Part shown: positions 128 through 42,800 of the stretch, one piece after another
Layout of the letters: every line of letters starts with the position of its first letter
Position numbering within the stretch: position 1 is the first letter of the stretch
Virus record (IMG/VR): IMGVR_UViG_3300020138_000003
Location: 1 to 43,058 of that record
Direction: 5' to 3' (one strand)
Source of the DNA: a virus
Length of the DNA: 43,058 bases
Position numbers and translations under genes: made by a program
Notes under the pieces: generated by a model
The model's input: the letters and a program-made list of their open reading frames with translations, nothing else
What the model was told of the DNA's origin: nothing
The model's database searches: none

Positions 128-1023
128 AGCGAAGCAACCAACGGCAAGCCGACGCTTAGGCCAGCCTGAATAATCGGAGCACTGTTGATCTGCTGTTCAG
201 CCGTAGCGTCAGGTGCCCCCAGCTTATCAAACACAGTCTGATAATCGGTGTCCTCATCGTCCGTAAGCTCTCTAATCCCTTGATCGATAGCCAAGCCAAC
301 ACCAAGGTTGGTTGCCAGCTTCGGAACAGTTGGTCCAATCAGGAACGGAGTGACAGCTTCGGCAACGGCAGGGACACCCTTGAGCTTGCCAGGCCCAGGC
401 AGAGGGATTAGGCTCCCAGCAATAGCAGCGGCGCTTTCCTCAATGTTCCGAGGATCACCGACGCCAAGGGAAGCGTTGATCTTGCGCTGACGATCTACGC
501 TGTAATTCAGTGCATCCTCAGCCCCAATATCCACACCGGGGATAAGCTCGACGCCCGACCCGACAAGGCCGTACAACGCAGGCCCGAATGTAGTCGGATC
601 AGCCGTACCGATCAACGCACCACCAGTCTGCGCCGCCATCCTTCCCGTAACATACGCAGCGGTTTTCGGATCAGTGACGTTCGTAAGGAAGTCGCGGCTG
701 TCAACCAGCGCACGCATTTCCTTCTCTTCCTTGCCCTTGGTGCTGTTGGGCCGATCGGTTAGGTACTTATCAAGCTCAGCATCGTCCAGCGTTCTTGGAT
801 CAACAGGATCGAGCGTAGCCAAAAGCTCATCTACATTCTGCAAGTCCAAAGGATCATCCGGCGTTACAACACTTGTAACACCGGACTGATCCCGCTCTAC
901 TCTGCTGCCCTTCCTGCGCCTGATCTCCAGTAGCAGGTCCAGATCATCAAGCTTCTCAAGCTCGTCATCGGGCTTATCGCCACCAAGGGACTTGTACTCA
1001 TCGATCAGGTCCTTATTCGCCAC
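1..1023 (-). CDS. 5' part (341 codons) of a wrap-around protein of about 1386 aa, a large internal-virion/ejection-type protein; continues at 42931..39794
   Basis: My translation stays open from GTG at 1023 to base 1. GGAGG sits 5 nt upstream of that GTG, which overlaps the end of ORF 1013..1864. The frame is in phase with MTKALWTATKPQ of track ORF 39794..43042. The function call rests on size and position only. Confidence 0.8.
   Translation of the reverse strand, partial: MANKDLIDEYKSLGGDKPDDELEKLDDLDLLLEIRRRKGSRVERDQSGVTSVVTPDDPLDLQNVDELLATLDPVDPRTLDDAELDKYLTDRPNSTKGKEEKEMRALVDSRDFLTNVTDPKTAAYVTGRMAAQTGGALIGTADPTTFGPALYGLVGSGVELIPGVDIGAEDALNYSVDRQRKINASLGVGDPRNIEESAAAIAGSLIPLPGPGKLKGVPAVAEAVTPFLIGPTVPKLATNLGVGLAIDQGIRELTDDEDTDYQTVFDKLGAPDATAEQQINSAPIIQAGLSVGLPLVASLPIVAPMTKALWTATKPQTPKIVEINAIDPSGPKNLASIETTA
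864..878. repeat. iterated palindrome TTACAACACTTGTAA (0 mismatches)
   Basis: Inside the giant gene, read as VTSVVT. The flanks extend the dyad (CCGG..CCGG). Confidence 0.95.
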
Positions 1024-1864
1024 CGCCGCCTCCCCGACCGGTTGTCATCGCCTTGGCTGCAAGCTGAGCAGCCTCGGCGCGGGTTTTGTCCGCACTCATC
1101 ATCGCTTGGATCAGAGCCGTCAAGCCCTGTGTAGTCGATGTATCGAACGTATTAGCCAAACCGCTCGGGCTGTATCCACTCCGACCGTCCTGACCAGCCA
1201 AACCACTGAGCATAGAAAGTTCGTTCTGCGCTCGATTGTTCCTAGCACCCTCGAACGTGGCAAAGTCTTGCATACCCTGCCGTTTCGCAGCACTGGTAAC
1301 ACCGTCAAATGCGCCTTCGCTCAGTCCTCGGAAGGCACTAGCAAAATCAGCAGCATTATTACCACCGCCAGCGCGTAGGGCCTGACGAGATACAAGTTCA
1401 CCAACACGATCTAGCCCCTGCTGTCGATCCTGCACCGCCGAACGCTGAGCATCGGCAATGAAGTCCTGCTCGCTGCGCTTCGGAGCATAGCGATAGTTGT
1501 TGAACGCCTGCTCGAAGGCATCGTTGGCCTGAATAGATCGCTGATCCTGCCGTTCAAGAGCCGCCCTGTTCCTAGGAGCATCCTCCCTAGCAGCGAGCAA
1601 CTGCTCGACTTGCTCAGCATCGAGGATCGCCTGTGACGTGGGCGTCTTCTCAGTAAACCAACCACGCACAGGATCGTACTTAGTAACGTTCCCGTACGCA
1701 TCAGTCCTCGGGGCCGTGATCAGCGACTGCTGCTGCCGAGACGAGGACAAGCTGTCCAACACGCTCGCCAACAGGATCGACTGAGGATCGACACGACCAT
1801 CCCTACCCCTTGCTAGGGTATCGGCAAAAGCCTGTTCAAGCAAGTCCTCGAAATCTACAGCCAT
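1013..1864 (-). CDS. hypothetical virion-module protein, 283 aa
   Basis: Track ORF in the late arm, tightly packed with its neighbours. No domain recognised. Confidence 0.65.
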   Translation of the reverse strand: MAVDFEDLLEQAFADTLARGRDGRVDPQSILLASVLDSLSSSRQQQSLITAPRTDAYGNVTKYDPVRGWFTEKTPTSQAILDAEQVEQLLAAREDAPRNRAALERQDQRSIQANDAFEQAFNNYRYAPKRSEQDFIADAQRSAVQDRQQGLDRVGELVSRQALRAGGGNNAADFASAFRGLSEGAFDGVTSAAKRQGMQDFATFEGARNNRAQNELSMLSGLAGQDGRSGYSPSGLANTFDTSTTQGLTALIQAMMSADKTRAEAAQLAAKAMTTGRGGGGGE

Positions 1865-2260: not shown

Positions 2261-2977
2261 TTACTTCCTTTCCTCACCGAGGACCTGCTGAAGGACCCGA
2301 TTGGAAGTCTGGTCTTTCTCAGCTTCATCATCGAATGATTTGATCCGATTGATTTCGGTGATCATCGAAGCGCGATCCATCGAGCCAGTATAGTGCCCAT
2401 CAGAAAGCATTTCGAGATAGCCACGAAGCTGGCGATCAGACATGTTTCCCAAGTCGTCCGTTACAACACTTGTAGCAGGAGCCGCCTGCTTCTGTTGCAT
2501 GACATCCCCGAGCACCTTGGCCCGGATAGCATCAGTCGATCCCGACGCGACGTTTGGGCCATTGCCAACAGGATCAGCACGTAGCGTGTCATCACGATTA
2601 TTGATGATGCTCTGCCCAGCCCTGTTCCCTCGGTGGGCGGCGTCCCAATACCCAAGCTCGTCCTCACCTTCCGCAGGCCAGTCACGAGTATCGTTAAACG
2701 GATCGCCCGGAGCCTCTTCCTGTATCTGCAAAGCCGCGGCTGCGACCATCATCATTTCACCATCCGAAGCCGGATCGAGAATGCCTGTCGCACGCTTGGC
2801 TTCTTCATAGGCAGCAGGATCAATGCGATCCATGACGTTGCCGAACCTGTTGCTCAGCGGATGCGGAAGCGCGTTGGCAACTCTGTTGGTCGACCGATTG
2901 CTGCTGATCGCACCACCGACAAGACCTGTATCGCCTCTCAGAGCAGCGAGAAGATCATCCTGAAAACCGTCAGCCAT
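2261..2977 (-). CDS. hypothetical virion-module protein, 238 aa
   Basis: Track ORF with 2-3 nt gaps to its neighbours. Confidence 0.65.
   Translation of the reverse strand: MADGFQDDLLAALRGDTGLVGGAISSNRSTNRVANALPHPLSNRFGNVMDRIDPAAYEEAKRATGILDPASDGEMMMVAAAALQIQEEAPGDPFNDTRDWPAEGEDELGYWDAAHRGNRAGQSIINNRDDTLRADPVGNGPNVASGSTDAIRAKVLGDVMQQKQAAPATSVVTDDLGNMSDRQLRGYLEMLSDGHYTGSMDRASMITEINRIKSFDDEAEKDQTSNRVLQQVLGEERK
2461..2475. repeat. iterated palindrome TTACAACACTTGTAG (1 mismatch)
   Basis: Inside 2261..2977, read as ATSVVT. Confidence 0.9.
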
Positions 2978-2980: not shown

Positions 2981-3292
2981 TTACTGCTCCACTCGATCGT
3001 AGTGCGTGCCAACAACGATCCCTGTCGGCTGCTTGTTCTTGTCAGCGAACTGCAAGGTGTTCGTAGCCACGCTGTCCTTGGCAAACGGGTTGTAAATCCG
3101 CGCATAGAACGAGGGGTTCTCGAACAAAATCTGCGCCGTGTCGTCATCGATGATGAATACGTTTTCATGCTCATCGATCACAGCAATTCGATGTCCCTCA
3201 TCGTTACAAAAGTTGTAATCGACCTCAATCGAAGTCTCGACATCGTCATCGACCCCAGGACCGACTTCCTTAACCACAGGCTTCCTAGCCAT
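2981..3292 (-). CDS. hypothetical protein, 103 aa
   Basis: Track ORF in operon context. Confidence 0.6.
   Translation of the reverse strand: MARKPVVKEVGPGVDDDVETSIEVDYNFCNDEGHRIAVIDEHENVFIIDDDTAQILFENPSFYARIYNPFAKDSVATNTLQFADKNKQPTGIVVGTHYDRVEQ
3204..3218. repeat. iterated palindrome TTACAAAAGTTGTAA (0 mismatches)
   Basis: Inside 2981..3292, read as YNFCN. This is the only Y-N-x-C-N frame case. Confidence 0.95.
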
Positions 3293-4213: not shown

Positions 4214-4668
4214 TGCTCGATCTCCATGCAGAAATTGGTTCCGATCTGTGTAAAGCCAAAGCGTTTGGCGAGCATGGCAAACTTCTCAACCTTGTAACCG
4301 CTCGACTGTGACCATCGGATTTCTCTTACACACCGTTCCTTGGCCCATTTCACATAAGCCGTTACAAGTGTTGTAATCGCCTTTAGGCTCCGATGCTGCG
4401 GGATGACATAGGTCACCCGGTCGATAGCATAAGCCTCGTAACTGAATGGGAACGACAACGCCTCCGCTGCCATTCCTCCAATGATCTGCCCATGATCTGT
4501 GATCACGTTGCAGAAAAAGTCCTCGTTGTTGATATTGCCCTTGAGCATTCCGATAACCTTCTCAGGAGCATAGCTGATCTTACCGTAATGTGTTTCGGCA
4601 AGACCAGCCTTGAGAAGCTCAACGATCATTGGAATTTCGTACGGGCTGTAACGCCTTGTCTCGATCAT
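4210..4668 (-). CDS. GNAT-like N-acetyltransferase (tentative), 152 aa
   Basis: The ATG at 4668 overlaps the upstream TGA (ATGA). The beta-alpha pattern and the segment VIPQHRSLKAITTLVTAYVKWAKE resemble GNAT motif A. No search was run. Confidence 0.45.
   Translation of the reverse strand: MIETRRYSPYEIPMIVELLKAGLAETHYGKISYAPEKVIGMLKGNINNEDFFCNVITDHGQIIGGMAAEALSFPFSYEAYAIDRVTYVIPQHRSLKAITTLVTAYVKWAKERCVREIRWSQSSGYKVEKFAMLAKRFGFTQIGTNFCMEIEQ
4362..4376. repeat. iterated palindrome TTACAAGTGTTGTAA (0 mismatches)
   Basis: Inside the GNAT-like gene, read as ITTLVT. Confidence 0.95.
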
Positions 4669-5050: not shown

Positions 5051-5065
5051 TTACAACTCTTGTAA
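5051..5065. repeat. iterated palindrome TTACAACTCTTGTAA (0 mismatches)
   Basis: Fills 15 of the 20 nt between the stop at 5069 and the start at 5048. Confidence 0.95.
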
Positions 5066-5614: not shown

Positions 5615-6152
5615 CGATCAAGCGCCCCTGCTTCGCCCAATCACGCCAAGGGTGAAGCTCGAAGTGGCCCCAATCGAGAAAACTCTCATCAGAGGTTTTA
5701 TCGTTCATGTTCCAATCAGCACCCCAACGAATAGGGATTTTGCGCGCTTTGGCAATGGTAAGAAACACCTGCGCAATGGCTTTGAACTTATCCACGTTGT
5801 CGAAATCAATGGGATAGGGGACGATGTCCATGGCAACGGCAGGGATATAGTTATGTGCCGACTGACCAAAGTGTGCCTTAGTGTTACCGAGCTTGAATGC
5901 CTGCTCTTGCTCGGCCCTACCACGTTGTGCATCAAGGATCACGAAGTCGATCTGTTTGATCGCCTCATCAACGATCAATTGCAGGTTCGGATGTAGTTCC
6001 TTTCGTGCATCCAAGCTGCGTTTGGAGAACTTGAACCCCGTTACAACAGTTGTAGTTAGTCCAAGATCAAGCTCAGGCTCGGTTTCCTCAACCACTTCTT
6101 GTCTCCGTTTGTAGAAAATCCAGCCGAACAAGTTACATCCACGGTTCACCAC
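5607..6152 (-). CDS. M15-family zinc peptidase (endolysin candidate), 181 aa
   Basis: The pattern SAHNYIPAVAMDIVP ... DWGHFEL fits the H-x6-D ... H metal ligands of VanY/M15 peptidases. Confidence 0.75.
   Translation of the reverse strand: MVNRGCNLFGWIFYKRRQEVVEETEPELDLGLTTTVVTGFKFSKRSLDARKELHPNLQLIVDEAIKQIDFVILDAQRGRAEQEQAFKLGNTKAHFGQSAHNYIPAVAMDIVPYPIDFDNVDKFKAIAQVFLTIAKARKIPIRWGADWNMNDKTSDESFLDWGHFELHPWRDWAKQGRLIDE
6041..6055. repeat. iterated palindrome TTACAACAGTTGTAG (1 mismatch)
   Basis: Inside the M15 peptidase gene, read as TTTVVT. Confidence 0.9.
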
Positions 6153-7788: not shown

Positions 7789-9260
7789 TGCAGCGCCTTA
7801 AAGACATAGGTTGAAACGCCATTAATCCTTCTGATCGACATAATGAATTTGTGCCCATTCGTCGTTGTAAGTTCATCGCCAGTGTTCGTACCGACAGTAA
7901 ATCCGGACAACGTCAACGCTCCGGCAGAAGCGCCATTCGTCATAAGCAAATCGATGGCACAGTCTTGTGTCGGAGCAGTAATCGTGAGCGCGCTGTTTCT
8001 TGTGCCGTATTGATACGACGACTTTGTATGATCAAGGGTAAAACTCGTCATAGTTCCAAGCGAAGCAGTAACAATGGCAGAACCCCCGCTCCGTGCAACT
8101 GCCGCTGTTTGCGTCGCCGTCAAATTTTGTGGTGCCCCTGTTCCTGCTCCCACCGCGCGGCCTTTGATCTGCGCCTGCGCCATGTCAGCAAGTTTAGCAT
8201 TGCCGACGTAACCATCAGGGACTGTTCCAAAGCGTGCATCATCACCAGCAGCAACTGTCCCTTCCGTTGTGCCCACATTTAGTGTAGCAGCACCACCGAG
8301 GTCCTCAGGTTGCACTGCGGTGCTTGCCAGTACCCCCTCCGCAGCAGTAGCAAAGTCACTTACTTTCTTTCCACTGTCCTTGATGATCTTACCAGTCGTA
8401 CCTGAGAACAGCACAATCCTATCATTGACCGAAGTGATCGGGCCTTGGACATCACCAACGCCCTCAGCTGGAACGCCAGGCAATCCACTGATGCTGATGT
8501 ACCAATTCGAGATCGTGCCTGTGCCCTTGATCGCAGCGACGTCAATGGTAAGCTCACCAGTCGCAGGATCATAGGCCGTGATCGGACCATAAAGCTGGTT
8601 ATCGGTAGGATTGGCAGCATCCCTCGCCACCACCCAATCTCCGGGACGCCACGACTTGCCGATCTCGGTTTGGAAATTCAGGACTGCTTGTTCAATATCG
8701 TGCTCTGTCGTGCTCGTCCCAGAGTACGTAGCGGCAAGCATGGCCAATTCAGCACGATCAGCATCTGCATCGACCTGTGCTACAACACTTGTAATGTCGA
8801 AGATCGGGAACCAGAACCCTTGGCTCAGATCAGCCAACAAATCATCGCTGGACTGGTGCGGAACAAGACAACCAAGGATTAGTGCCCCACCCATTGCATA
8901 GACGAGGTCGTTAGTGAAATATGCAGTCTGTGGCAGCCAAAAACCGCGAGGCAGCAATCCCTGTGACACTACGCGCCAACGCTCAGGGTGAGCAGCAATC
9001 TCTTCTGAGAATGTGCCAGTGCTTGGGCTCGTGTGCTCAATCAGGCAGCGCCACAAGCTGCCCGTCGCTGTATTGACGACACGATCCTCAACCCTATACA
9101 ACGTGTTGTGTGCCCAGATGCCTCTGATGTTCGAAAACACACCAAGCGACCGCAATGTTGCATCAATGATGGTCATATTGTCGTTAACATCATCGTGCCA
9201 TGTCGCGGCATTAAAGTTCGGACGAGACAAACGCAGGGTCGGTGTTGGATTTGTGGTCAT
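7785..9260 (-). CDS. tail fibre/tailspike candidate, 491 aa
   Basis: Called from size, position after the tail-tube-like genes, and Gly/Thr/Ala-rich repetitive segments. Confidence 0.45.
   Translation of the reverse strand: MTTNPTPTLRLSRPNFNAATWHDDVNDNMTIIDATLRSLGVFSNIRGIWAHNTLYRVEDRVVNTATGSLWRCLIEHTSPSTGTFSEEIAAHPERWRVVSQGLLPRGFWLPQTAYFTNDLVYAMGGALILGCLVPHQSSDDLLADLSQGFWFPIFDITSVVAQVDADADRAELAMLAATYSGTSTTEHDIEQAVLNFQTEIGKSWRPGDWVVARDAANPTDNQLYGPITAYDPATGELTIDVAAIKGTGTISNWYISISGLPGVPAEGVGDVQGPITSVNDRIVLFSGTTGKIIKDSGKKVSDFATAAEGVLASTAVQPEDLGGAATLNVGTTEGTVAAGDDARFGTVPDGYVGNAKLADMAQAQIKGRAVGAGTGAPQNLTATQTAAVARSGGSAIVTASLGTMTSFTLDHTKSSYQYGTRNSALTITAPTQDCAIDLLMTNGASAGALTLSGFTVGTNTGDELTTTNGHKFIMSIRRINGVSTYVFKALQ
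8780..8794. repeat. iterated palindrome CTACAACACTTGTAA (1 mismatch)
   Basis: Inside the fibre gene, read as ITSVVA. Confidence 0.9.
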
Positions 9261-11083
9261 CTGAAATACGTCCCGATGTAGTAGATGATGGTAAGTGTTG
9301 CGATGTTGAGAGGTTTATTGGAAGAACCGGACAGCCTGAGCTTCAAAATTTTGAAGTCAGCTGGGTTCTTCCAAGGACGCTCATCTTTCGTACGCCTACC
9401 GCCACCATACGGTTGATCTTGATTACCATAACCTTGGCTATCTCCACCAACGAAATCGAACGATGTCGCCGGATCGAAGTTGCCGTCACGGTCTAGGTAA
9501 TAGTTATCCACGAATGCCTGTAGTGTAAACTGTGCTGTACCGCCAGTATCGATCTGGATATAGGACAGCCGCTTCTTACGGGCGCGCATCCCAAGACTTG
9601 TCCAAGGAAGCTCCCAAGCGAAGTTGATATACTGACCATCAGTGATGTCGAGAAGCCTCCCCGCAGCCTCATCATTCTCGATTGTGTTGGATACATGACT
9701 GATAAGAGCACGGTAAATTTTGTCGCTGTCTGGGTCTTTGAGAATTTGCCCAGCTGTTACAGGGACAGCTTGCTCCCAGACACTGTCGTACTCACCGACT
9801 TTGTCTCCGGTGTACCTCTCATTATCAAAGACGTCGTTGCCGTACTGATAGACTTTAGTTCCTTCGCCAAGGAACACTCTGCCACGAGCCGTGCCACAGC
9901 CACAGGTTGGCTTAAGCCCAAGAATGCGAGAGAACGCTGGGGTTTTGAACGTCTTGCGAAGAACCGATGCTGTCCAACCGATCGTCTCACCCTGCTCATC
10001 GATTACAAAAGTTGTAATGCGCCGTTCGAGCTTGTTGTAGACCGAGAATGCCTTAGCGCGATCCATGCTCTCAAGGCTGACCGAGCCAGCAAACTTCGGG
10101 TCCAACGGTTGGCTGATACCAAACGTCTCAACAAGTCCAAACGTGTTCTTACGAGCCAGATGCCAGCCGGTAGTGTCCGCCATGACAAGATCACGCTCAG
10201 CAGTGATCATCGTCCGATAGTTGATAACACCATGCTCTACGATGTTGTCTTGCACGACTGGCTTGTGAACATCGTTGTCGTCATATTGCCCAAGCTCAAC
10301 CGTGACGATCGAGCCTTCGAATGCAACAATTAGGCTGTTCCTATACGACGCAAGTCCGATGATCTCATTCGTATTCTCAGGCACAAAGCTGCTAAGATTA
10401 TACGAAATGCTATCATTGGGCGGATCATCACCGGGCCAAACGCCGGACGTGCCAGAGCTAGAGATATAGATCGAGCCAAGGGCGGCACTGATCCCAGCCA
10501 TGACGAGATAGTTGCCACAGGTCGTGACGTACCTGCCAATTGGCGTGTTCACGTTCGAGCCAGTTGCTGGATCATCGAGATACTTGACTGAGAACCCAGC
10601 AGATATAATCAGGGGCTTGTCTTGGCCGTTGACGACAACGAGGTCGCCCTTGAACTCTGATGTATCAATGTAAAACTGGCCGGCAGACCAACCATCGGGG
10701 GTTCCGGGAAGCAGCCCAGCAATCGTGCTGTTCCAGATCGCGGTCGGCGTGCCGCTGTTGTCAATCCGTGCGATCTCACCACCGTCAGTAAACGCCAACA
10801 GCGCGCCGTTGAAGTACACGATCTCCAGCAACTGGCCTGTTACAACGTTTGTAACGTCACAGAACAGTTTCGTGCCCCAACGAATGGACAAGGTGCCATC
10901 GTTGTCCTGAACGACATTATCCAGAACCTTGGCAAACTTGCTATTCAGTGTAAGATCGTTGGCTGTTAAATCCAGCCCACCATCGAACCCCGTAATCGAA
11001 ACGTCTCGAAGCTGAACAGACTGCTTCGGAGGCTTAATTCGGGGAAATAAGGACAGTGCTGCCATCGCGATAACCTGCTCCAT
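9257..11083 (-). CDS. tail tubular/nozzle-type protein candidate, 608 aa
   Basis: Synteny only. It is a large ORF after the head module and an adaptor-sized ORF. Confidence 0.4.
   Translation of the reverse strand: MEQVIAMAALSLFPRIKPPKQSVQLRDVSITGFDGGLDLTANDLTLNSKFAKVLDNVVQDNDGTLSIRWGTKLFCDVTNVVTGQLLEIVYFNGALLAFTDGGEIARIDNSGTPTAIWNSTIAGLLPGTPDGWSAGQFYIDTSEFKGDLVVVNGQDKPLIISAGFSVKYLDDPATGSNVNTPIGRYVTTCGNYLVMAGISAALGSIYISSSGTSGVWPGDDPPNDSISYNLSSFVPENTNEIIGLASYRNSLIVAFEGSIVTVELGQYDDNDVHKPVVQDNIVEHGVINYRTMITAERDLVMADTTGWHLARKNTFGLVETFGISQPLDPKFAGSVSLESMDRAKAFSVYNKLERRITTFVIDEQGETIGWTASVLRKTFKTPAFSRILGLKPTCGCGTARGRVFLGEGTKVYQYGNDVFDNERYTGDKVGEYDSVWEQAVPVTAGQILKDPDSDKIYRALISHVSNTIENDEAAGRLLDITDGQYINFAWELPWTSLGMRARKKRLSYIQIDTGGTAQFTLQAFVDNYYLDRDGNFDPATSFDFVGGDSQGYGNQDQPYGGGRRTKDERPWKNPADFKILKLRLSGSSNKPLNIATLTIIYYIGTYFR
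10003..10017. repeat. iterated palindrome TTACAAAAGTTGTAA (0 mismatches)
   Basis: Inside 9257..11083, read as ITTFVI. Confidence 0.95.
10840..10854. repeat. iterated palindrome TTACAACGTTTGTAA (0 mismatches)
   Basis: Inside 9257..11083, read as VTNVVT. Confidence 0.95.
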
Positions 11084-20194: not shown

Positions 20195-20223
20195 CCGGGG
20201 GCGGGGCTGATGATTACAGTGCG

Positions 20224-31669: not shown

Positions 31670-31928
31670 GGATCGCGTCCGTTTCACGCACATGTCCCGG
31701 CCAGAGTTCATCCACTTCGCCAAGGACTTCCTGTTCATCATGTTCGATCGAGGATCGGCTTCGGAACTCAAGACTATTATAAGTCTTGTAATCGAGGACA
31801 TCGACTTCAAATCCAAGCAAGAGTTTGTCCTCACCATCGAGCAACTATACAGAGAGCTAAAGCACACATGGCAACCGAACTTACAATCACTAGCCCAGCC
31901 GAGCAATTCCCCAGATCAACAGGAATAA
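31659..31928 (+). CDS. hypothetical protein, 89 aa
   Basis: ATG at 31659. It overlaps the next gene by 61 nt. Confidence 0.45.
   Translation: MQTKDRVRFTHMSRPEFIHFAKDFLFIMFDRGSASELKTIISLVIEDIDFKSKQEFVLTIEQLYRELKHTWQPNLQSLAQPSNSPDQQE
31777..31791. repeat. iterated palindrome TTATAAGTCTTGTAA (1 mismatch)
   Basis: Inside 31659..31928, read as IISLVI. Confidence 0.9.
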
Positions 31929-33064: not shown

Positions 33065-33621
33065 TGCCAACCAAATCTAAAGTTGCTGGGCCGGCTAAGC
33101 CTAAGTCGGCCAGTAAGGGTAAAGGGACTGCGCCCAAAGACAGCCCCGCTACAACTGTTGTAACCAAACCAACCAAAGGTAACGCTACCATGTCTGACCA
33201 GGTCACGATCATCGATCTCGATATGAACCTCGAAGATTTCGAGGATTATGAGATTTTGCCCGATGGTCCTCTCCCCGGTGAATGCACCATTGCCGAGGTC
33301 CGCACTTCGGACAATGGCAACCAGTATTTCTACACCATGTGGCGGATCGATCCTTCCGATTATCCGCTCGACTACGATCGGGAGAACGCCCCGAACGGAA
33401 CCATCATGAACTATTCGCGTGTTCAGGTTCCGACCCCCGGCGATCGTCGCTCGATCACTTCGGTCAAGAAGTTCATGGCTGCGATGGGCCTGAGCCTCAA
33501 GACCAACTCGATCGATTGCTCGCAGTGGGTTGGCAAGCGCGCCATGCTCAACATTGGGCATCAGGTCTACAACGGTGAGAACCGGAACCAGATCGTGTCG
33601 GTTGAGAACGAGGACGCCTAA
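33064..33621 (+). CDS. DUF669-like putative ssDNA-binding protein (tentative), 185 aa
   Basis: Lies next to the AAA_24 ATPase. Basic low-complexity N-terminus followed by a globular domain. Confidence 0.4.
   Translation: MPTKSKVAGPAKPKSASKGKGTAPKDSPATTVVTKPTKGNATMSDQVTIIDLDMNLEDFEDYEILPDGPLPGECTIAEVRTSDNGNQYFYTMWRIDPSDYPLDYDRENAPNGTIMNYSRVQVPTPGDRRSITSVKKFMAAMGLSLKTNSIDCSQWVGKRAMLNIGHQVYNGENRNQIVSVENEDA
33149..33163. repeat. iterated palindrome CTACAACTGTTGTAA (1 mismatch)
   Basis: Inside 33064..33621, read as ATTVVT. Confidence 0.9.
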
Positions 33622-33740: not shown

Positions 33741-33770
33741 GAGGGGGAGATTAATTTCTCCCCCTCTTAT
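33741..33770 (+). terminator. intrinsic terminator GAGGGGGAGA-ttaatt-TCTCCCCCTC-TTATT
   Basis: 10-bp GC-rich stem, confirmed against the ORF-track frame. Confidence 0.65.
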
Positions 33771-33784
33771 TACAACTCTTATAA
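33770..33784. repeat. iterated palindrome TTACAACTCTTATAA (1 mismatch)
   Basis: Intergenic, directly after the terminator 33741..33770 and upstream of the helicase. Confidence 0.9.
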
Positions 33785-33803: not shown

Positions 33804-35027
33804 ATGTCGTTCTCCAACGCTACCCAAGATCAACAGCTAGCAATCGATCTAAGCCTCGACACGGCTAATCGACTTGTTGGCATCACTGGGGCAGCAGGCA
33901 CAGGCAAAACCACCGTTCTCGGTGAAGCAATATCCGAAGCCAAAGATGCTGGATACTCAGTCGCAGTCGCTGCCCCGACTGGCCGTGCCGCCGCTCGGAT
34001 CAAAGAAAAGTCTGGGCATTATGCTCAGACAGTCCATCGCTTGCTTGGCTATGGTGCCCCTGATCCCAATGACCCCAATGATATGCCCATCCCTAAGCGT
34101 GGGCGTAGTAATCCTATCCCTGCCGACTTCATCTTCATTGATGAAGCCTCGATGCTTAGTGATGAACTGCACCGCAATCTTGTTCAAGCTGTTCGCCCCG
34201 GTGCCGTCCTGCGCTACTTCGGGGACATGAACCAACTCCCGCCTGTCGAAGGAACCAGCAAGTTCCAGATGGTGCTCGACAAGTTCCCGTCAGTTACACT
34301 ACAGCACAACTTTCGTTCAGGCGACGGGATCATTCAGGCCAGCCAATCCATACTCAAGGGCCTGCTTCCCGTCACCAACGATCAGGTTTCGATCCTCAAC
34401 ATTGGTTCGCGCCTTGGGCTCACCACGCTCAGCGAGTTCATTGATGAAGAGTTTCTTACTGACCAAGCGCAGATCATCTTGCCCACGCGCGTCGGTCAGC
34501 TTGGTACAAATCTTGTAAACAGGTACATCCAACAGAAGCTCAACACCAATCCTCGGCATCTTGATCTGGTCTATGAAGCCAAAGGTCAGGACCCTGAGCA
34601 GAAGTTGCGCCTACGTCCCGGCGACAAGATCATCTGGACCAAGAACGATTACAATCTCAACCTGTTCAATGGCATGATCGGTCGCGTCGTCAACTTCGAT
34701 GAGTTCGAGGGCTCGATTGTGCTTGAGTTCTATGGGCAGGACAAGGTTATTCCTACAGTCCTCGAACGCTACGATGCACAGAACGATAGGAAAATCTTCC
34801 GGTATGATCCGCGGCGCTACATCGATCTGGCCTACGCAATCACGACGCACAAGTCTCAGGGCTCAGAGTTCCAGCGCGTATTAATGCTGCTCTATCGCAC
34901 TCGTGTCGCATCGCGCCAGAACTTCTATACAGCAATCACTCGTGCTCGTAAGCACGTTACCGTCATCGCTGGCCCCGGTGGCCTTCGATCAGCCATGCAA
35001 CTTCAACGTCAGTCACAGGAGGAATAG
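33804..35027 (+). CDS. SF1 DNA helicase, RecD/Dda-like, 407 aa
   Basis: Motifs ITGAAGTGKTT, FIDEASML, GDMNQLPPV, AITTHKSQGSEF and YTAITRARKHV. Confidence 0.9.
   Translation: MSFSNATQDQQLAIDLSLDTANRLVGITGAAGTGKTTVLGEAISEAKDAGYSVAVAAPTGRAAARIKEKSGHYAQTVHRLLGYGAPDPNDPNDMPIPKRGRSNPIPADFIFIDEASMLSDELHRNLVQAVRPGAVLRYFGDMNQLPPVEGTSKFQMVLDKFPSVTLQHNFRSGDGIIQASQSILKGLLPVTNDQVSILNIGSRLGLTTLSEFIDEEFLTDQAQIILPTRVGQLGTNLVNRYIQQKLNTNPRHLDLVYEAKGQDPEQKLRLRPGDKIIWTKNDYNLNLFNGMIGRVVNFDEFEGSIVLEFYGQDKVIPTVLERYDAQNDRKIFRYDPRRYIDLAYAITTHKSQGSEFQRVLMLLYRTRVASRQNFYTAITRARKHVTVIAGPGGLRSAMQLQRQSQEE
34504..34518. repeat. iterated palindrome GTACAAATCTTGTAA (1 mismatch)
   Basis: Inside the helicase gene, read as GTNLVN. 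Confidence 0.9.
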
Positions 35028-35367: not shown

Positions 35368-35789
35368 TCTACCGCAAATCCAACCATCGGTTTCCAAAGA
35401 AGGCCCCACTTGCCAAGCGTATCTTTGTCTATGGCTCGTCCCTTACTGGTTCGGTCAAGACAGGCTTGGCACACGATGCCTACATGCACCACGGCGCAAC
35501 TGCCGGACATAAGGCCGGTATCAGTGGACAGGCATATGCCATCCCTGTCCGTGACCATAACGATAAGCTCTTGACCTTGATACAGATTGATCTTTGGGTC
35601 AGTCGGTTCTTGGTCTTTGCAGCTGAACATCGAGAGCTACAGTTCGATGTCACGGCTGTCGGTTGCGCCCCCAACGAGTACACGGCACAGCAGATTGCAC
35701 CGTTCTTCCAAGTCCGAACCACCAACATCAGGCTACCGAAATCATTCATCAACGTCCTGATCAACCCAACCCCATTACAAGAGTTGTAA
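35364..35789 (+). CDS. conserved-looking hypothetical protein, 141 aa
   Basis: ATGA overlap upstream. The motif FVYGSSLTG...GISGQAYAIPV is reminiscent of Rossmann/SLOG-like phage proteins, which is very tentative. The stop codon is supplied by a palindrome copy. Confidence 0.55.
   Translation: MIYRKSNHRFPKKAPLAKRIFVYGSSLTGSVKTGLAHDAYMHHGATAGHKAGISGQAYAIPVRDHNDKLLTLIQIDLWVSRFLVFAAEHRELQFDVTAVGCAPNEYTAQQIAPFFQVRTTNIRLPKSFINVLINPTPLQEL
35775..35789. repeat. iterated palindrome TTACAAGAGTTGTAA (0 mismatches)
   Basis: Read as L-Q-E-L-stop. Its TAA is the stop of 35364..35789, and the next ATG follows 1 nt later. Confidence 0.95.
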
Positions 35790-35991: not shown

Positions 35992-38488
35992 TCTAAAGCT
36001 CCACAAGAAGGAAATGCTCAATCGTTGTATTGAGCTTGATCTTGAACCACAGGTTCTGTGCGATGGCAGGCTCGACGCTGAGCTTGTCATCGTTGCCGAA
36101 GCTCCCGGTGGAACAGAAGTTGCACAGAAGCTCCCACTCGTTGGGAGTTCTGGTGCATTGATCTGGAACATCCTACGCCAGAACAACATCCTCCGTCCGA
36201 ACTTCTACATCACCAATGTCTGTAAGCGACAGATCAGCCTCAGCAGTGAGAAGCGTGCTGCTGTCCCTGCTGATGAATGGACACGGTGGCGCACGCTGTT
36301 TGATTGGGAAATGCGGCAGCTTACGGGTCCCAAGGTAATCCTTGCTATGGGCAACGTGGCTATCGAAGCTCTGCTCGGTGTCACTGGCATCAACAAGTTC
36401 CGTGGCTCAGTCTATGATCTGAACCTCAACGGACATGATGTTAAAGTCATGTGTACCTACAATGCTGCGGCAGTTCTTCGGCAGCCCAAGGATGAAATCA
36501 TTCTGCATTTTGACATCCGGCGGTTTGCTCAGCTTGCTCAGGGCGATTGGAAAGAGTGGCCAGTCACCACGCGCTACGATCTCAGCTTCGATGAAACCCT
36601 TGCCGAGATCGCACGGTTCAAAGCCGAGAACAAAGACACAGCCGTTGACATCGAGTGGACCTCGGGGCGCTTGGCCTGTGTCGGCTTGGCCAACGATGTT
36701 CATCATGCTGTTTGTATCAATTTCCGTGACAGGCTTTCCAATCGCTTTACGACCGAGCAGGAAATCCAAATCATGTTCGCGTTACAAGACTTGTATCAAA
36801 GTCTCGCAGCATCAGGCCACATGATCGGACAGAACAGTTCGTTCGATAGTCATGCTTCTGGCATCTTCGATCACATTGATATGCCGATGAACTATGACAC
36901 GTTGCTTGCTCACCATACACTCTATCCAACCCTACCGCACAACCTCGGTTTCCTCACCAGCATGTACACGACCATGCCGTACTACAAGGACGAGGGCTCC
37001 GAGTGGAAGGAAGATGGTGATGTCACTACGCTCTGGGAGTATAACGGTAAGGACGCCTGCGCAACCCTAGCCGCTAAGATCGGCACTGAGCAAGAGCTAA
37101 AACAGCAAGGGCTCTATGACTTCTTCATCAACCATGTCATGCACTTGCAGCCGCACCTAATCCAATCGACCATTCATGGGATCAGAGTTGATCAGGCTAT
37201 CAAGCGCAAGATCGCAACCGAACTCTCAACCGAAGTCGAGGAAAAGAAGCTCAAGTTCCAGCACTGCGCAAGGATTGCTACTGGCTTACCTGACACATAC
37301 AAGCCCAACCCTGACAGCCCAGCCCAAGTCAAAGACCTGCTCTATACTCGCCTCGGCCTACGGCATCGATCCAATTCCACCGACGCCAATGCTCGGGAAG
37401 ATATGCTCGCCGATCCTCGAACGTCGGCTGCTGCCAAGGAAGTTCTCGTCTCGCTCACCAACTACAAAGCCGATGCGAAGTTCCTGTCAACCTATGCCGA
37501 AAGCCGTGTCGATCCTGACGGCAGGTTCCGCTGCGACTGGAAACAGTACGGCGTTCAGTCAGCACCGGGGCGACTATCTTCATCCAAGACCCTTTGGGGC
37601 ACAGGGATGAACATGCAGAACCAGCCATATCGTGCTCGGCAGTTCTATATTGCTGACGACGATTGTGTGCTGATCTACTTCGACCTTGCGCAGGCTGAGG
37701 CGCGTGTTGTTGGCTACGTCGCCGACATCGACAAGTGGAAGGAAGATTTTGAACGTGCTCGTGTGTCTGGGGATTTCGACTGCCATCGATCCCTTGCCGC
37801 TGACATGTTCAAGATGCCTTACGACGACGTTCCCAAAGACGACCTTGATGAGGATGGCGAGCATACCATCCGTTACATCGCCAAGCGTTGTCGCCACGGC
37901 TTGAACTATCGAATGCAGATTGATCGACTTGCCGAAACAACAGGCTTGTCTTTCTCTCGCGCTGCTCAAGCCTATCATGCCTATCACCGCTTGACCCCAG
38001 AGCTTCAACTCTGGTGGAAGGAGATTGAACACATAGCCAAGCGTGATCGAGAACTGTTCAACGCCTTTGGTCGCAGGATGAAAATCTTGCAGCGCATTGA
38101 CGATGATGCTCTCAAGTCAATCGTTGCGTTCTATCCTCAGTCTACCATTGGGGACAAGGTCTGTGAAGTCTGGTACTCGGCACATGAAGATGATCGATGG
38201 GATAGCCACAAGGCGCGTATTCAGCTTAATGTGCATGATGCTCTCATCGGCATCGCGCACAAGGACTATGCCAAGACTGCTCTGTCGATCATGAAAGCCT
38301 ACGCAGAGAAACCGATCCTGATCGAGAACGTTTACAAGACCAAGCGTGAGCAGCTTATCATTCCTGCTGACTGCGCGATCTCTGCGCTTGAGTTCAAGGA
38401 CAAGAAAGGAAACATCGTCAAGGATACTGTCCATCGCTGGTCGAACTTGCAGAAGCTCAAGCTCGATGCAGCAAGTCTGCCGATCTGA
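35981..38488 (+). CDS. family A DNA polymerase with an N-terminal family-4 UDG-like domain and a 3'-5' exonuclease
   Basis: UDG-like segment VIVAEAPGGTEVAQKLPLVGSSGALIW. Exonuclease motifs VDIEW, QNSSFDS and YNGKD. Polymerase motifs FDLAQAEARV, RYIAKRCRHGLNY and NVHDA. The start is uncertain: GTG at 35981 overlapping the upstream stop, or ATG at 36014. Confidence 0.9.
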   Translation: MQTDLKLHKKEMLNRCIELDLEPQVLCDGRLDAELVIVAEAPGGTEVAQKLPLVGSSGALIWNILRQNNILRPNFYITNVCKRQISLSSEKRAAVPADEWTRWRTLFDWEMRQLTGPKVILAMGNVAIEALLGVTGINKFRGSVYDLNLNGHDVKVMCTYNAAAVLRQPKDEIILHFDIRRFAQLAQGDWKEWPVTTRYDLSFDETLAEIARFKAENKDTAVDIEWTSGRLACVGLANDVHHAVCINFRDRLSNRFTTEQEIQIMFALQDLYQSLAASGHMIGQNSSFDSHASGIFDHIDMPMNYDTLLAHHTLYPTLPHNLGFLTSMYTTMPYYKDEGSEWKEDGDVTTLWEYNGKDACATLAAKIGTEQELKQQGLYDFFINHVMHLQPHLIQSTIHGIRVDQAIKRKIATELSTEVEEKKLKFQHCARIATGLPDTYKPNPDSPAQVKDLLYTRLGLRHRSNSTDANAREDMLADPRTSAAAKEVLVSLTNYKADAKFLSTYAESRVDPDGRFRCDWKQYGVQSAPGRLSSSKTLWGTGMNMQNQPYRARQFYIADDDCVLIYFDLAQAEARVVGYVADIDKWKEDFERARVSGDFDCHRSLAADMFKMPYDDVPKDDLDEDGEHTIRYIAKRCRHGLNYRMQIDRLAETTGLSFSRAAQAYHAYHRLTPELQLWWKEIEHIAKRDRELFNAFGRRMKILQRIDDDALKSIVAFYPQSTIGDKVCEVWYSAHEDDRWDSHKARIQLNVHDALIGIAHKDYAKTALSIMKAYAEKPILIENVYKTKREQLIIPADCAISALEFKDKKGNIVKDTVHRWSNLQKLKLDAASLPI
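36782..36796. repeat. iterated palindrome TTACAAGACTTGTAT (1 mismatch)
   Basis: Inside the polymerase gene in the stop-containing frame, read as LQDLY. TAA is changed to TAT. Confidence 0.9.
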
Positions 38489-38503
38489 TTACAACACTTG
38501 TAA
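38489..38503. repeat. iterated palindrome TTACAACACTTGTAA (0 mismatches)
   Basis: Starts right after the polymerase stop. Its 3' end overlaps the AAAGGAA RBS of the mazG-like gene. Confidence 0.95.
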
Positions 38504-39517: not shown

Positions 39518-39534
39518 AATGCTTGGAGACACCA

Positions 39535-39861
39535 ATGGCCTTCTCTCTGCGCTACGCTGAACTTGTTCGTAGGCTTCTGCTTGCTGCTGGTACCAACGGC
39601 ATCGGTCAGCGTGATCTACACCAGCGTTCTCGTACTCCAAAGTACAACATCGATGACCTGCTCATGTTGCTTCATGCTTGGCAACGCCGCAATTGGGTCG
39701 ATCATTACAAGATTGGAGCTAAGCATTACTGGCGCGCGACACAGCTTTTGCATGACCAGTGGTTCATCGTTACAAGTGTTGTATCAGACGTGCTCACTGC
39801 GGACCTCCCGCCATCGGCGCTAAGTCCTTCGCAAAATCAAACCGACGACCCGGAGGCATGA
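39535..39861 (+). CDS. winged-helix-like DNA-binding protein candidate, 108 aa
   Basis: GGAGA lies 5 nt upstream of the ATG at 39535. HTH-plus-wing pattern GIGQRDLHQRSRT ... VDHYKIGAKHYWRAT. The 3' end overlaps the convergent giant gene by 68 nt. Confidence 0.45.
   Translation: MAFSLRYAELVRRLLLAAGTNGIGQRDLHQRSRTPKYNIDDLLMLLHAWQRRNWVDHYKIGAKHYWRATQLLHDQWFIVTSVVSDVLTADLPPSALSPSQNQTDDPEA
39770..39784. repeat. iterated palindrome TTACAAGTGTTGTAT (1 mismatch)
   Basis: Inside the winged-helix candidate gene, read as VTSVVS. Confidence 0.9.
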
Positions 39862-42800
39862 CCCCGGCCGCAACAAGTTGATCAGTCACGTCATCTTCGA
39901 TCTGCCTGATCTGTGCAAGCTGTTGTTCCATTGTCGCATGGCGCTCAGTTTCGAGCAAGTTGATCAGACGCTCGACATCGAACCTGTCAGTCAGGTCAAT
40001 GTCGTTGTCTTTCAACAACTGTCTTGTCTTAATCATTTGCTCGTATTGCCACTCAGTAGCTTTCGCGCTCTCAAGAGCACTTTTCGCTGCCAGCCCGGCC
40101 TCCGTCTGTGTTTTTTCTCCACGCGGAATAGCGTCATACGCTTCTTGGGCAACAGCTGTCTCCCCCTTAGCCTGTTCGTAATCGTCCACAGCACTGTCCA
40201 GTTTCTGCTCGAACTCTATATAATCCCTCTTGCGTCCAGCGTTATATCCCTTGAGCAGGTTGATTTGTTCAGTCAGCGTACCCTGCCGCGCACGGATGTT
40301 CCCCATACCATACGCGCTGTTGCTCTCCATCGAGTTCCAGATATATTCGCCCATCGCCGCATATACTGGATTGGTCGGCCTCGGGGTAGTTGGGGGCGCG
40401 ACATAGCCAATCGGCGCATCCATTGTCACACCAGCCGGACCAGCAGGGAAGTCTTGCGTTGACCGCACTACTCCGCCCCGACGATAGTGCAGGTCGTACT
40501 CATCCTTGAACTTATAATAGGCATCAAGCTTCATCCGCTGCTCTTGAGCAATCGGTGTAAAGTACGTAGCCTTACGCTTTAGCCCAGCAACGCCCTTGAG
40601 TACCGGAACCCTGGCCAGCACGTCCTCGCTAAATTCCTCAGCCGCCGCACCCGGTCCCCCCTCGCCAAAGGCATAGGCGGCATCGAGGGCATAAGCACTC
40701 GCAGCACCGAACAGTTCACGGATCGTCATTTCGACGTTCTGCGGCAGATAACCAACGTTATCCTCGGTGATGTTGTAGGCATTCCCACCGATCTCAGGCG
40801 GATTAATACCAAGCATAGCAAGCCCAGCATTGGCCAGTGGAGGCATACTGATTGGGCTCATGTTCTGCAACAAGGTCATACCGAACTGGTCAGCAGCAGC
40901 TTTCGTATGCTCGTCGCTCGATGACAAGTGTTGTAACATCTGCTGATATGGTGCAGCAAACAGCACCTGCTCATGTGCAATCGGAATGCTGATCCCCTGC
41001 TCGGGAGGCAGCCCAGGAATACCGATGTAAATCGGCTCCATGATCTGATCACGCATCGAACGCTGCTCGAACTGGTACTTGTTGTAATCATGCCCATCGG
41101 GGTTCTGCTCGCTTAGCATATTATTCCATGCCATTGATACAACACTTGGCAAGCCGACCGTCATCCATGACCGAAGCGCGAACCGTACCGGATCATCCGC
41201 AGCCGCACCAAATGCTCTGCGCACGCCCTGTATCGATGGGTTAAAATACGGCACAGAAAGCCGAACAGCCTCAGACGCACCACCGATTATTGCATCTAGT
41301 GGCACGAACGTGGGGTTCGCAGCATCTGCGGTGATCAAACGCCCTCGACTATCAAAGGCTCGGCCAGACCTGTTCGTATCACCAGTAATCCTTCGAGCAC
41401 TACCCGCAGCTTTGGCGGGATCGATCCCCGCCTTGACTGAACGCTTGAATGCCGAGTATCTCGGAGCTTCCTGCAAGCTATCGAACAGCGCACCGAAGCC
41501 CTTGATAGCTGCCCCAGCACTCACGCCCCACGATCTGCCAAGCCAAGGGTAACGCTCATTCAACTCTCGACCGATCTCATGGAACGCACCAGTCGCAACC
41601 TCCATTCGAGTACGCATGATCGAGGCGTCGTAACCACCCTGCTCTTTGGCCATCGTGTAGATCGTATTCTGCAACGAATTGGCAGCACGCTGCACGAATT
41701 GCTGAGCCGCCCCCTGTTCCATGAACGGGATCATCTGCTTCCCAGCCAGTAACCTTGCCTCAGCCGCACGAACGAAAGCCTCGGTAGCCTTAGCACTGAG
41801 GATTTCAGCCGGTGCGGTAAGCACACCAAGAATGCTGGGGCCTTTCTCACCCTTGCCGACGTTCGCAGCGCCTGCGAGTGTATCGCGGATCATTGTTGTC
41901 GGAGCAAACGTGATCGAAGCAACACCAGTCGTACCCTTTTCGAACCACCTACGGGCCGTGACGATGCTACTCCCAAGTACGCCGCGAACAGCGTAGGGAT
42001 CAAACTGTGCAATCTGCGCCTGCAACTGGCCTGTGATGTAATTCGTGGTCTTGCCCTGCCTTACAACACTTATAATGCGCGTCGGATACTTCCGAACTTC
42101 ATCCGCCGTAGCCTTCCTGATCAATGGTGATTTCTTGCCCTTGATCCTCGCAGCCTGAACATCAGATGAGAGCAAGCTATCAACGTAGTTCGCCCTCGTA
42201 TTGTTCTGCAACTGCTGATTGAGCACGCCGCGCGTATACTCGATCATCGTCTCCATCGAGTGCCGACGATCGTTGACTGCCTTGTTCCCAAGATAGTCTT
42301 TGCGCCCGAACCAAGCCTGCTCATCAACTGGGGCACGATTGTTCCTTGCAGCCTGATTGATCCTAGTCAGCAGCGGGTCGCCGGGATTGATACTCGTCGG
42401 GCTGCTCGGGACAAAGTGCTTTCTGCTCATCGCAAGGCTTTGTCCCTGATTACGCCCAATCAGTGCATTCGGCCCCTGCTGCAAGAAGTCCCTGCTTGCA
42501 TCCATCACACCCTGATAAGCTTTGCTGAACTCGGCAAGCTGCGGGTACTTGGCACGCAAGTCAGCGCGTTGTTTCTGAACAGTGCTGAGCTTTCGTTTGG
42601 CCCCCTTTGGTCCCTTCGGATTGTTTGCTTGCAATCTTAGGTCGTCGGCAAAGTCACCGAGCTTGAGATACAGATCGTATTCGCGCTGAACTTCGGGCGG
42701 AAGCTGATAGAAGCTATCATACAGCACTCGCGGAGCGACAGGCGCGTTGAAGTCTCCGAACTGCCCACGAAGCTTGCCGGAGTTCAGAGCTTCGTTGGTT

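Follow-up and report, generated by a model that had tools for sequence, protein, structure and literature searches.

A palindrome iterated about once per kilobase through an uncultivated phage genome, with lineage-specific counterparts in its relatives

What keeps 45 nearly identical copies of one palindrome in a small phage genome? The IMG/VR virus record IMGVR_UViG_3300020138_000003 was analyzed over its whole stretch of 43,058 nucleotides (nt; here called the window), in which an earlier note, made from the sequence alone, had reported a 15-bp palindrome, TTACAA-N3-TTGTAA, repeated genome-wide. A pattern search of the whole window yielded 20 perfect copies and 25 copies with one mismatch, spanning positions 864 to 42075, and this recount is identical to the earlier one in numbers and coordinates. 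The density is about one copy per kb (45 in 42.9 kb), whereas dinucleotide shuffles expect 0.00 perfect copies and 0.07 copies with at most one mismatch. Sites with 0, 1, 2, and 3 mismatches number 20, 25, 1, and 10, respectively; because only one site has two mismatches, the cutoff is sharp, and the sites appear to be kept within one mismatch of the consensus. The sequence logo is wider than the core (Y-R-TTACAA-S-W-S-TTGTAA-Y), and two features pointed out in the note, an A or T at the center of the spacer (43 of the 45 copies) and flanks that extend the dyad, were both recovered. Spacers on the plus strand read CWC in 18 copies and GWG in 7, which is not clearly above the prediction from the excess of C over G.

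The window is a circularly closed assembly whose ends (1 to 127 and 42932 to 43058) are identical over 127 bp, so that the unique sequence measures 42,931 bp. The open reading frame (ORF) listed as 39794 to 43042 (1082 amino acids [aa]) runs on over the circular junction to a start at position 1023, giving a minus-strand gene of 1386 aa. Since this last minus-strand gene crosses the junction, site 864 counts as in-gene, a small correction to the note; 28 to 29 of the 45 copies are located in reading frames. The sites, to which no strand is assigned, are as follows (a sign in parentheses is the strand of the ORF).

864..878: perfect (TTACAACACTTGTAA), in the 1386-aa junction-spanning gene
2461..2475: one mismatch (A15>G), in ORF 2261-2977 (-), frame 1
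3204..3218: perfect, in ORF 2981-3292 (-)
4362..4376: perfect, in ORF 4210-4725 (-), frame 1
5051..5065: perfect, occupying the 20-nt gap between two minus-strand genes; mRNA strand TTACAAGAGTTGTAA-CG-ATG, with the GAG spacer at the Shine-Dalgarno place
6041..6055: one mismatch, in ORF 5607-6152 (-), frame 1
8780..8794: one mismatch (T1>C), in ORF 7785-9260 (-)
10003..10017: perfect, in ORF 9257-11083 (-)
10840..10854: perfect, in ORF 9257-11083 (-)
11726..11740: perfect, intergenic, 2 nt before the ATG of ORF 11034-11723 (-); mRNA-strand spacer GAG
12937..12951: perfect, intergenic, 2 to 3 nt from the stop of the major head protein gene and from the next start
14046..14060: perfect, in ORF 13915-15012 (-)
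14754..14768: one mismatch, in ORF 13915-15012 (-)
15765..15779: one mismatch, in the portal gene
16755..16769: one mismatch, in the portal gene
17472..17486: one mismatch, in the large terminase gene, frame 0; the mismatch abolishes a TAA stop
18519..18533: one mismatch, in ORF 18511-18729 (-)
19380..19394: perfect, 2 nt before the ATG of the small-terminase-like gene 18733-19377 (-)
19815..19829: perfect, 14 nt upstream of where the first leftward gene probably starts (ATG at 19801)
20180..20194: one mismatch, non-coding switch region
20224..20238: perfect, switch region; frame-0 copy whose TAA is the stop of a gene
20372..20386: one mismatch (A6>G), switch region
20791..20805: one mismatch, switch region
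21686..21700: perfect, intergenic
23032..23046: perfect, probably non-coding, within the 5' part of ORF 23012-23611, which is not conserved
23612..23626: one mismatch, first base directly after a stop codon
24757..24771: perfect, in the 5' part of ORF 24665-25219
25238..25252: perfect, 20 nt upstream of gene 25273-26274
26282..26296: perfect, 7 nt past the stop of gene 25273-26274
26825..26839: one mismatch, intergenic
27374..27388: one mismatch, in ORF 27172-27429
28010..28024: one mismatch (G12>A), in ORF 27565-28050 (DUF6197)
29048..29062: one mismatch, in ORF 28705-29223
29979..29993: perfect, in ORF 29753-30076
31097..31111: one mismatch, in the PD-(D/E)XK exonuclease gene
31777..31791: one mismatch (C4>T), in ORF 31581-31928
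33149..33163: one mismatch, in the DUF669/SSB-like gene 33064-33621
33770..33784: one mismatch, just upstream of the helicase start (33804)
34504..34518: one mismatch, in the Dda-like helicase gene
35775..35789: perfect, frame 0; its last TAA is the stop codon of ORF 35364-35789
36782..36796: one mismatch, in the DNA polymerase A gene, encoding LQDLY as TTA CAA GAC TTG TAT
38489..38503: perfect, first base directly after the polymerase stop codon
39770..39784: one mismatch, at the convergent junction of the arms, in ORF 39523-39861
40922..40936: one mismatch that removes a frame-0 stop, in the 1386-aa gene
42061..42075: one mismatch, in the 1386-aa gene

The in-gene copies are selected at the DNA level. 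Each of two codon-preserving controls was run 1000 times over 50 called genes, with the 17 non-genic sites left untouched; permutation of synonymous codons within genes lowered the total from 45 to 18.95 ± 1.1 (maximum 22), and permutation of codon order lowered it to 17.04 (maximum 19). The 28 real in-gene copies are thereby reduced to ~2 or ~0, respectively, so this check, which had been proposed in the earlier note, does not reproduce them. They mainly occupy frame 1 (xTT ACA ANN NTT GTA Axx), the least costly frame; of the five in frame 0, those at 20224 and 35775 supply the stop codon of a gene, and those at 17472, 36782, and 40922 have a mismatch that destroys the TAA. Intergenic copies occupy gaps of 15 to 60 nt, and at four of them (5051, 11726, 12937, and 19380) the mRNA strand has the layout TTACAA-GAG/GGG-TTGTAA-NN-ATG, in which the spacer appears to double as the Shine-Dalgarno-like element of the next gene.

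The copies are also evenly spaced. Circular gaps have a mean of 954 bp and a coefficient of variation (CV) of 0.478, versus 0.97 for random placement; the lowest CV among 20,000 random sets was 0.598, so that no set matched this evenness, and 38 of the 45 gaps measure 480 to 1720 bp. Long genes (portal, DNA polymerase A [PolA], and the 1386-aa gene) hold sites at approximately kilobase intervals, so that a rule of one site per gene does not apply. The exception to even spacing is the cluster at 19380 to 20791 around the switch region between the two divergent arms. The half-site TTGTAA resembles a -35 hexamer, but no conserved -10 element follows it and a promoter scan gives one unrelated site, and a promoter reading was rejected.

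A host-wide motif was rejected after 185,579 bacterial and archaeal species, each represented by one genome, had been scanned for the 17-nt GTTACAACTCTTGTAAC, which has 4 copies in the window phage; 61 scattered single hits, about the chance level, and no motif-rich genome were found, with the limits that the scan covers one spacer variant and that the host may be unsampled. Around these 61 hits there were never more than two relaxed copies per 8 kb. Seven of them (L283, L290, L299, L321, L324, L327, and L328) have a second copy with at most one mismatch within 8 kb, which is above chance; these might represent pairs of ordinary operators, or else fragments of phages that ended up in metagenome-assembled genomes through binning. 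The note's central claim, that the palindrome is a dedicated cis-element and not a by-product of composition, coding, promoters, or terminators, survives both the shuffles and the genome scan, and relatives lend it strong support, the array being a trait of the whole family with a sequence that differs between lineages.

These relatives were collected from IMG/VR by alignment-based searches, one with the large terminase (TerL) and one with the exonuclease; searching IMG/VR with a single TerL protein gave no match. A protein collection added closer relatives. Approximately 150 IMG/VR loci from genomes of ~40 to 48 kb share the architecture of the window phage. When the motif of each lineage was determined by de novo dyad counting, relatives at 45 to 85% protein identity were found to bear their own 13- to 15-bp dyad at 0.3 to 2.7 per kb, and at least nine motif classes occur across the family.

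TTACAA-N3-TTGTAA: window phage, L344/345, L103, L132-136, L141, L144
CTACAG-N3-CTGTAG: L121-L131, L208-L214
TTACAT-N3-ATGTAA: L156
TGTGTGA-S-TCACACA: L139, L154, L163, and others
TGTATGA-N-TCATACA: L149, L157
(K)TATAC-N3-GTATA(M): many loci
TGATTAA-N-TTAATCA: L138
GATAAA-N-TTTATC: L143
ACTTTAA-N-TTAAAGT: L150

TATACA-N-TGTATA is also found among the lineage dyads, a few relatives have weak or non-palindromic repeats only, and spacing is even in relatives as well (CV, 0.43 to 0.70). The TTACAA, CTACAG, and TTACAT classes have the common core TACA-N5-TGTA and are told apart by positions 1 and 6. At position 6, A occupies 97 to 100% of half-sites in the window phage and L344/345 and 88% in L103; the base is G in 88 to 100% in seven genomes (L208/129, L209, L210, L131, L347, L350, and L352), and T in 84% in L156. 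In eight genomes it is mixed A/G; these have the highest densities (1.1 to 2.7 per kb, with 6 of the 8 at 2.0 or above). Close relatives (84% identity in the major capsid protein, 65 to 75% in TerL) split cleanly into A and G at this position. The mixed genomes L346, L348, L349, L122, L211, and L214 contain hybrids such as TTACAA-GTC-CTGTAG, with the core at 2.0 to 2.7 per kb, approximately twice the density of genomes strict at position 6.

Motifs are exchanged in place. The PolA peptide LQDLY is encoded by TTA CAA GAC TTG TAT in the window phage and by CTA CAG GAC CTG TAT in L208, three synonymous changes apart. In the exonuclease gene, ATT ACA AGT CTT GTA G of the window aligns with ACT ACA GGT CTT GTA G of the CTACAG-type L214, and the site of the GTATAC class is one codon off; in the TerL gene, sites of four motif classes (that of the window phage, at 17472, and three others) lie within two codons of each other. 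Such swaps by synonymous changes exclude insertion of a mobile palindrome and show lineage-specific selection on the DNA (or the transcript). Repetitive extragenic palindromes and miniature inverted-repeat transposable elements were rejected on the same grounds, the in-frame copies standing at conserved codons and being converted between motif types by synonymous point changes.

The exact window motif is also found at about one copy per kb in three sets of IMG/VR contigs without proteins detectably related to this family.

L070 (669-4311) and L034: 62-kb phage with glycosyltransferases; exact motif at about kilobase spacing
L020 (5517-11410) and L090: 27-kb contigs of 42 to 45% GC with a phiEco32-like amidoligase/GATase cluster; exact motif at about kilobase spacing
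L056 (2058-8830): 158-kb contig; exact motif at about kilobase spacing

This recurrence could reflect chance among many such systems, transfer of the gene for a protein that reads the sites, or a shared host factor. No candidate for a common reader gene emerged from comparison of these contigs with the window phage, the only links being an HNH homing endonuclease and a 22-bit match in L056 to a small-terminase (TerS)-like protein. The HNH homing endonuclease gene (L056 3229-3726) is common to the 158-kb contig and to L218, L227, L239, and L282.

Whether the sites act as duplex DNA or as hairpins was addressed through their variation. Folded, they would form a 7-bp stem with a 3-nt loop, and four window sites gave -3.4 to -7.9 kcal/mol as single-stranded DNA (ssDNA) and -3.3 to -9.5 kcal/mol over ssDNA and RNA. 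Flank positions 0 and 16 favor R and Y independently, however, with 21 Watson-Crick pairs versus 20.6 ± 3.0 expected; no compensated double changes are found among the one-mismatch variants; and transition-type mismatches in the window are compatible with G-U pairing on the sense strand in 5 cases versus 10 on the antisense strand. All three results speak against selection for pairing in the window genome. Because the half-sites vary independently, each appears to be read separately, as by a dimer on duplex DNA. Structured RNAs and intrinsic terminators were likewise rejected, for want of flank covariation, compensated variants, terminator-like sites in the switch region, and any Rfam match.

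The window spacers show no sense-strand bias, whereas several relatives have oriented sites. In L147 and L148 (L147 1716-19499), the site TGTATGA-C-TCACACA has one orientation in the early arm and switch and the opposite one in the structural arm, and the sense strand reads TGTGTGAGTCATACA in both arms. In L282 and L239 (L282 2-10239; TATAC-AAC-GTATA), the spacer on the sense strand is AAC in 10 copies and GTT in 0, and the other arm of the contig agrees; in the structural arm of class D, the sense strand has G at the center by 13:2. Since asymmetric sites flip exactly where the arms diverge, the system is tied to some process with a direction. As candidates for it, transcription and replication that run outward from the switch are confounded, and one-way packaging fits poorly. 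GC skew flips with the arms in L147, unlike in the window, where it is about -0.065 on the plus strand, uniform over both divergent arms, with no flip at the switch and without tracking transcription.

To our knowledge, genome-wide iterated phage motifs have been reported from two actinobacteriophage clusters, with a mechanism established only for stoperators. Cluster O mycobacteriophages (Corndog and relatives) carry 34 copies of a 17-bp repeat, TGTTCGG-N3-CCGAACA, in ~70 kb, approximately one-third of them in genes; the authors proposed a dimeric protein and judged a promoter role unlikely, the function being unknown (PMC4351075). The earlier note's remark that it knew of no phage with a 15-mer at this density through its coding sequence needs qualifying in view of this palindrome, which reaches about half the density found here (34 in ~70 kb versus 45 in 42.9 kb) (PMC4351075). 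Cluster O and the window phage are alike in having 6- to 7-bp arms with a 3-bp spacer, more than 30 copies genome-wide in both short gaps and genes, and little or no consistent orientation to transcription, and the Cluster O repeat is absent from the host genome. The window phage is, however, unrelated (TerL identity to GenBank phages of no more than 26%, no megablast match) and has a different sequence motif; even spacing, synonymous recoding, and motif diversification are not reported for Cluster O, whose five genomes have one motif. The stoperators of Cluster A (L5 gp71) are ~24 asymmetric 13-bp sites per 52 kb, oriented with transcription and bound by the immunity repressor, which acts on passing transcription and not on initiation (PMC5712189). 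Their hallmark, a fixed orientation relative to transcription (PMC5712189), is seen in L147/L148 and L282/L239. Cluster A is also like the window phage in carrying at least 20 copies of a site of at least 13 bp genome-wide with a consensus that differs among relatives, whereas its sites are asymmetric and mostly intergenic in temperate phages with a known repressor, and those of the window phage are palindromic, mostly in-gene, and evenly spaced in a genome in which no repressor, integrase, or partition genes are detectable by Pfam or PHROGs (~45 ORFs). The closest system in form is the Cluster O repeat and in behavior the Cluster A stoperators; the window phage is a member of neither.

Similar designs exist outside these clusters. 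The KorB operators (OB) of plasmid RK2 (~12) and the dispersed centromere sites of phage N15 (4) are palindromes around a whole replicon, bound by ParB-family proteins, and in both cases one dimeric protein acts at a distance; they differ from the window array in their far smaller numbers and in that no ParB-family Pfam match occurs in the window phage. HIP1 of cyanobacteria, the uptake sequences of Neisseria and Haemophilus, and Chi are motifs of cellular chromosomes that, like the window array, occur about once per kb, are accommodated in genes by codon choice, and are more even than random, whereas the window motif is enriched in no scanned bacterial genome and changes between close phages. 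What is new here is the density, the even spacing, the in-place synonymous recoding, the breadth of diversification across an uncultivated family, and the mixture of symmetric and oriented variants.

By sequence comparison, the phage is without a cultured relative, as megablast with 25 kb of the window gave no match among GenBank phages and the best TerL identity by tblastn against them was 25.8%. Genes for the major head protein, portal, TerL, and small-terminase-like protein make up the recognizable part of the leftward arm; in the rightward arm are those for the PD-(D/E)XK exonuclease (a RecB-family nuclease with a C-terminal cysteine cluster), Sak4, the DUF669/SSB-like protein, the Dda/RecD-like helicase (superfamily 1 [SF1]), PolA, and a MazG-like pyrophosphatase. 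Nearly all of the remaining proteins have no Pfam or PHROG match. No integrase, repressor, ParA, ParB, methyltransferase, primase, HNH, or other nuclease beyond the recombination exonuclease was detected by Pfam or PHROGs on the ~45 ORFs, and no replicative helicase is recognizable in the genome; the phage looks lytic.

At about even confidence, we regard the array as operator-like duplex-DNA sites for a phage-encoded symmetric dimer acting genome-wide, by roadblocking and/or by genome organization. A two-fold symmetric (homodimeric), sequence-specific phage protein would read the 45 sites and coevolve with them; selection would keep about one site per kb, using nearly all small intergenic gaps and otherwise genes in tolerant frames. 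Bound along the whole chromosome, the protein would most likely act globally and not at single promoters; it could block or pause transcription in both arms, as in the Cluster A stoperator/repressor pair, and/or bridge sites ~1 kb apart and so organize the replicating genome. Among the mechanisms listed in the earlier note, sites for a dimeric protein fit best; priming stays as a live minority reading, and nicking or modification is left without an enzyme candidate.

The search for the reader nevertheless tells against a phage-encoded dimer in several ways. No DNA-binding family (repressor, integrase, ParB, or other) was found in the genome by Pfam or PHROGs. That a protein reads the sites, that the phage encodes it, and what its binding does are inferences. 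Two putative candidates can be named.

25273..26274, plus strand: candidate binding protein, a 333-aa early protein with a site just before and just after its gene
39523..39861, plus strand: weaker second candidate of 112 aa with a winged-helix-like sequence pattern, present in part of the family only

The first is conserved in the TACA-core classes and has a distant homologue in L147/L148. Its AlphaFold model (predicted local distance difference test score [pLDDT], 77.6; predicted template modeling score, 0.63) contains long helices and a helix-helix-beta-hairpin unit, and the fold may be new, with an insert resembling a winged helix; no significant Foldseek neighbor in PDB or BFVD, no PDB profile match, and no Pfam or PHROG family were found, and matches to MarR-like folds are non-significant (E > 0.1). 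Across 18 motif-labeled genomes, three conservative columns of this protein split the A and G classes, which is no more than in the portal or TerS. The Ser/Asn/Ala column at residue 148 was rejected as a specificity determinant, the class-A relative L344 having Asn. The second candidate has no Pfam match, and its single-sequence model is too poor to use (pLDDT, 53). The small-terminase-like protein (18733-19377) has an N-terminal helix-turn-helix and is the sole clear protein of this type conserved in all classes, but the recognition helix differs among members of one motif class and is near-identical between classes D and E, and it was rejected as the reader. Protein 19436-19834 looks structural and not DNA-binding, and a comparison of class E (L157) with class D to isolate the reader failed, as those loci stop short of the early arm. 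Considerations of function add to these difficulties. Classical operator function is unlikely because 28 to 29 of the 45 sites are in genes, away from promoter-like sequences; nothing about silencing calls for even spacing; the lytic look removes the usual reason for a stoperator system; and finding this motif in phage lineages unrelated to the window phage could instead implicate a host factor.

A different, rather unlikely, proposal is that the array is a lineage-specific "genome barcode", that is, evenly placed tags and a fast-evolving phage reader that confine a whole-genome process to the phage's own DNA. This process could be lagging-strand priming, protection from the phage's own helicase-nuclease, or selective compaction. 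If the proposal is true, tag and reader diversify among competing relatives like immunity specificities, a cis/trans self-recognition that has not been described for lytic phages.

Priming on its own, in which ssDNA hairpins on the lagging-strand template would start Okazaki fragments about every kb through a phage priming enzyme or a recruited polymerase, seems improbable to us, although it is the sole reading that predicts even spacing. Bacterial Okazaki fragments have about the length of the kilobase-scale spacing of the sites, and the mean gap of 954 bp with low variance matches it. The genome has PolA, the SF1 helicase, Sak4, the SSB-like protein, and the exonuclease and yet no recognizable primase or replicative helicase; the ssDNA hairpins are moderately stable (-3.4 to -7.9 kcal/mol at the four window sites); and the asymmetric variants would lie on the lagging-strand template in both arms if forks leave the AT-rich, repeat-rich switch, since they occupy the sense strand of each. 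Against it stand the missing flank covariation and compensated double changes, the uniform window GC skew (about -0.065) without a flip at the switch, and the lack of an enzyme candidate. The primases known to us read 3-nt sites, and we know of no precedent for a 15-nt signal.

It is similarly improbable that the sites serve a host protein, with the phage recruiting or titrating a host regulator or nucleoid protein and the motif differing as hosts differ. The identical motif at about one per kb in the unrelated contigs L070/L034, L020/L090, and L056 speaks for this, as do the lack of a phage-encoded reader among our candidates and the 7 of 61 chance-level genome hits with a second copy within 8 kb. 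The clean A versus G split of close relatives at position 6 is, however, finer and faster than the usual divergence of a host regulator, and other relatives use mixed A/G at twice the density; there are never more than two copies near a hit in bacterial genomes, and the wide GC differences of the other lineages argue against a common host.

Somewhat more doubtful still are self-marking tags, by which a phage reader would tell its own genome from host or competitor DNA, for example sparing it from the phage helicase-nuclease. Chi spares Escherichia coli DNA from RecBCD in this manner, but known Chi sequences are short and asymmetric. Tags of this kind would explain the density, the even spacing (any entry point being at most ~1 kb from a tag), the symmetry (either direction of entry), the rapid diversification in relatives, and the absence from bacterial genomes, and the genome has genes for an SF1 RecD-like helicase and for a RecB-family nuclease whose C terminus bears a cysteine cluster. 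The proposal is nonetheless purely inferential; the exonuclease-Sak4-helicase set occurs commonly in phages as a recombination module and is not known to depend on sites, and the oriented variants in relatives are not predicted.

RNA hairpins, with stem-loops in the transcripts to which a phage protein binds or through which translation or RNA stability is controlled, are very unlikely. Oriented variants do track transcription, the L147-type asymmetry gives a G-U wobble on the sense strand only (-6.5 kcal/mol as RNA), and four intergenic sites place a Shine-Dalgarno-like GAG in the loop. However, 28 to 29 of the 45 sites are in reading frames, where ribosomes would melt them; window spacers and wobble mismatches are without sense bias (5 sense versus 10 antisense); flanks do not covary; L147-type variants such as TGTATGACTCGCACA fold poorly on either strand; and even spacing is unexplained. 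Least credible are targets of a site-specific nicking, restriction, or modification enzyme: the site is palindromic and some phages (T5, phiKMV-like, and LUZ24-like) are nicked at consensus sequences, but Pfam and PHROGs detect no methyltransferase and, apart from the recombination exonuclease, no HNH or other nuclease; nicking of both strands of a palindrome would break the genome; and genomes normally avoid restriction targets instead of accumulating them at even spacing.

The phenomenon is no mycobacteriophage curiosity, as an uncultivated family with ~42- to 46-kb genomes, represented by hundreds of metagenomic contigs, keeps such arrays. At up to 1 to 2.7 sites per kb, they cost codon and amino acid freedom in essential genes, and selection at the DNA level acts on a sizeable share of the "silent", and even of the non-silent, sequence of these phage genes. 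The repeated change of site sequence, often at or near the same codons, provides a natural matched series for finding the reader and the function. If the function is global silencing, genome organization, priming, or self-recognition, the arrays would represent a general design principle for small phage genomes and would be a source of orthogonal protein-site pairs that engineering could use.

The sites cluster most densely between the two arms.

19835..21435, no strand assigned: switch region, 1.6 kb between the divergent arms, with nearly no coding sequence

The region contains AT-rich direct repeats (AATCTTAATCTT, AAAACAAAKAATAAATCTTA, and TATAGTATWATATATA, two copies each) as well as recurring GCTGYTCTAGTCC / TCTAGAAC elements. 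Its sole sigma-70-like promoter in the promoter scan points leftward (20012 to 19983), no Rfam family or terminator-like sites were found in it, and it could be an origin or control region. Scans of the window for tRNAs and Rfam families were empty. Two relatives have unusual genes: the DNA polymerase A gene of L347 carries a uracil-DNA-glycosylase domain (PF03167 and PF00476; 20598-21047), and L346 encodes a small protein (18642-18875) with the Acb2/Tad1 hairpin domain of anti-CBASS/Thoeris sponges.

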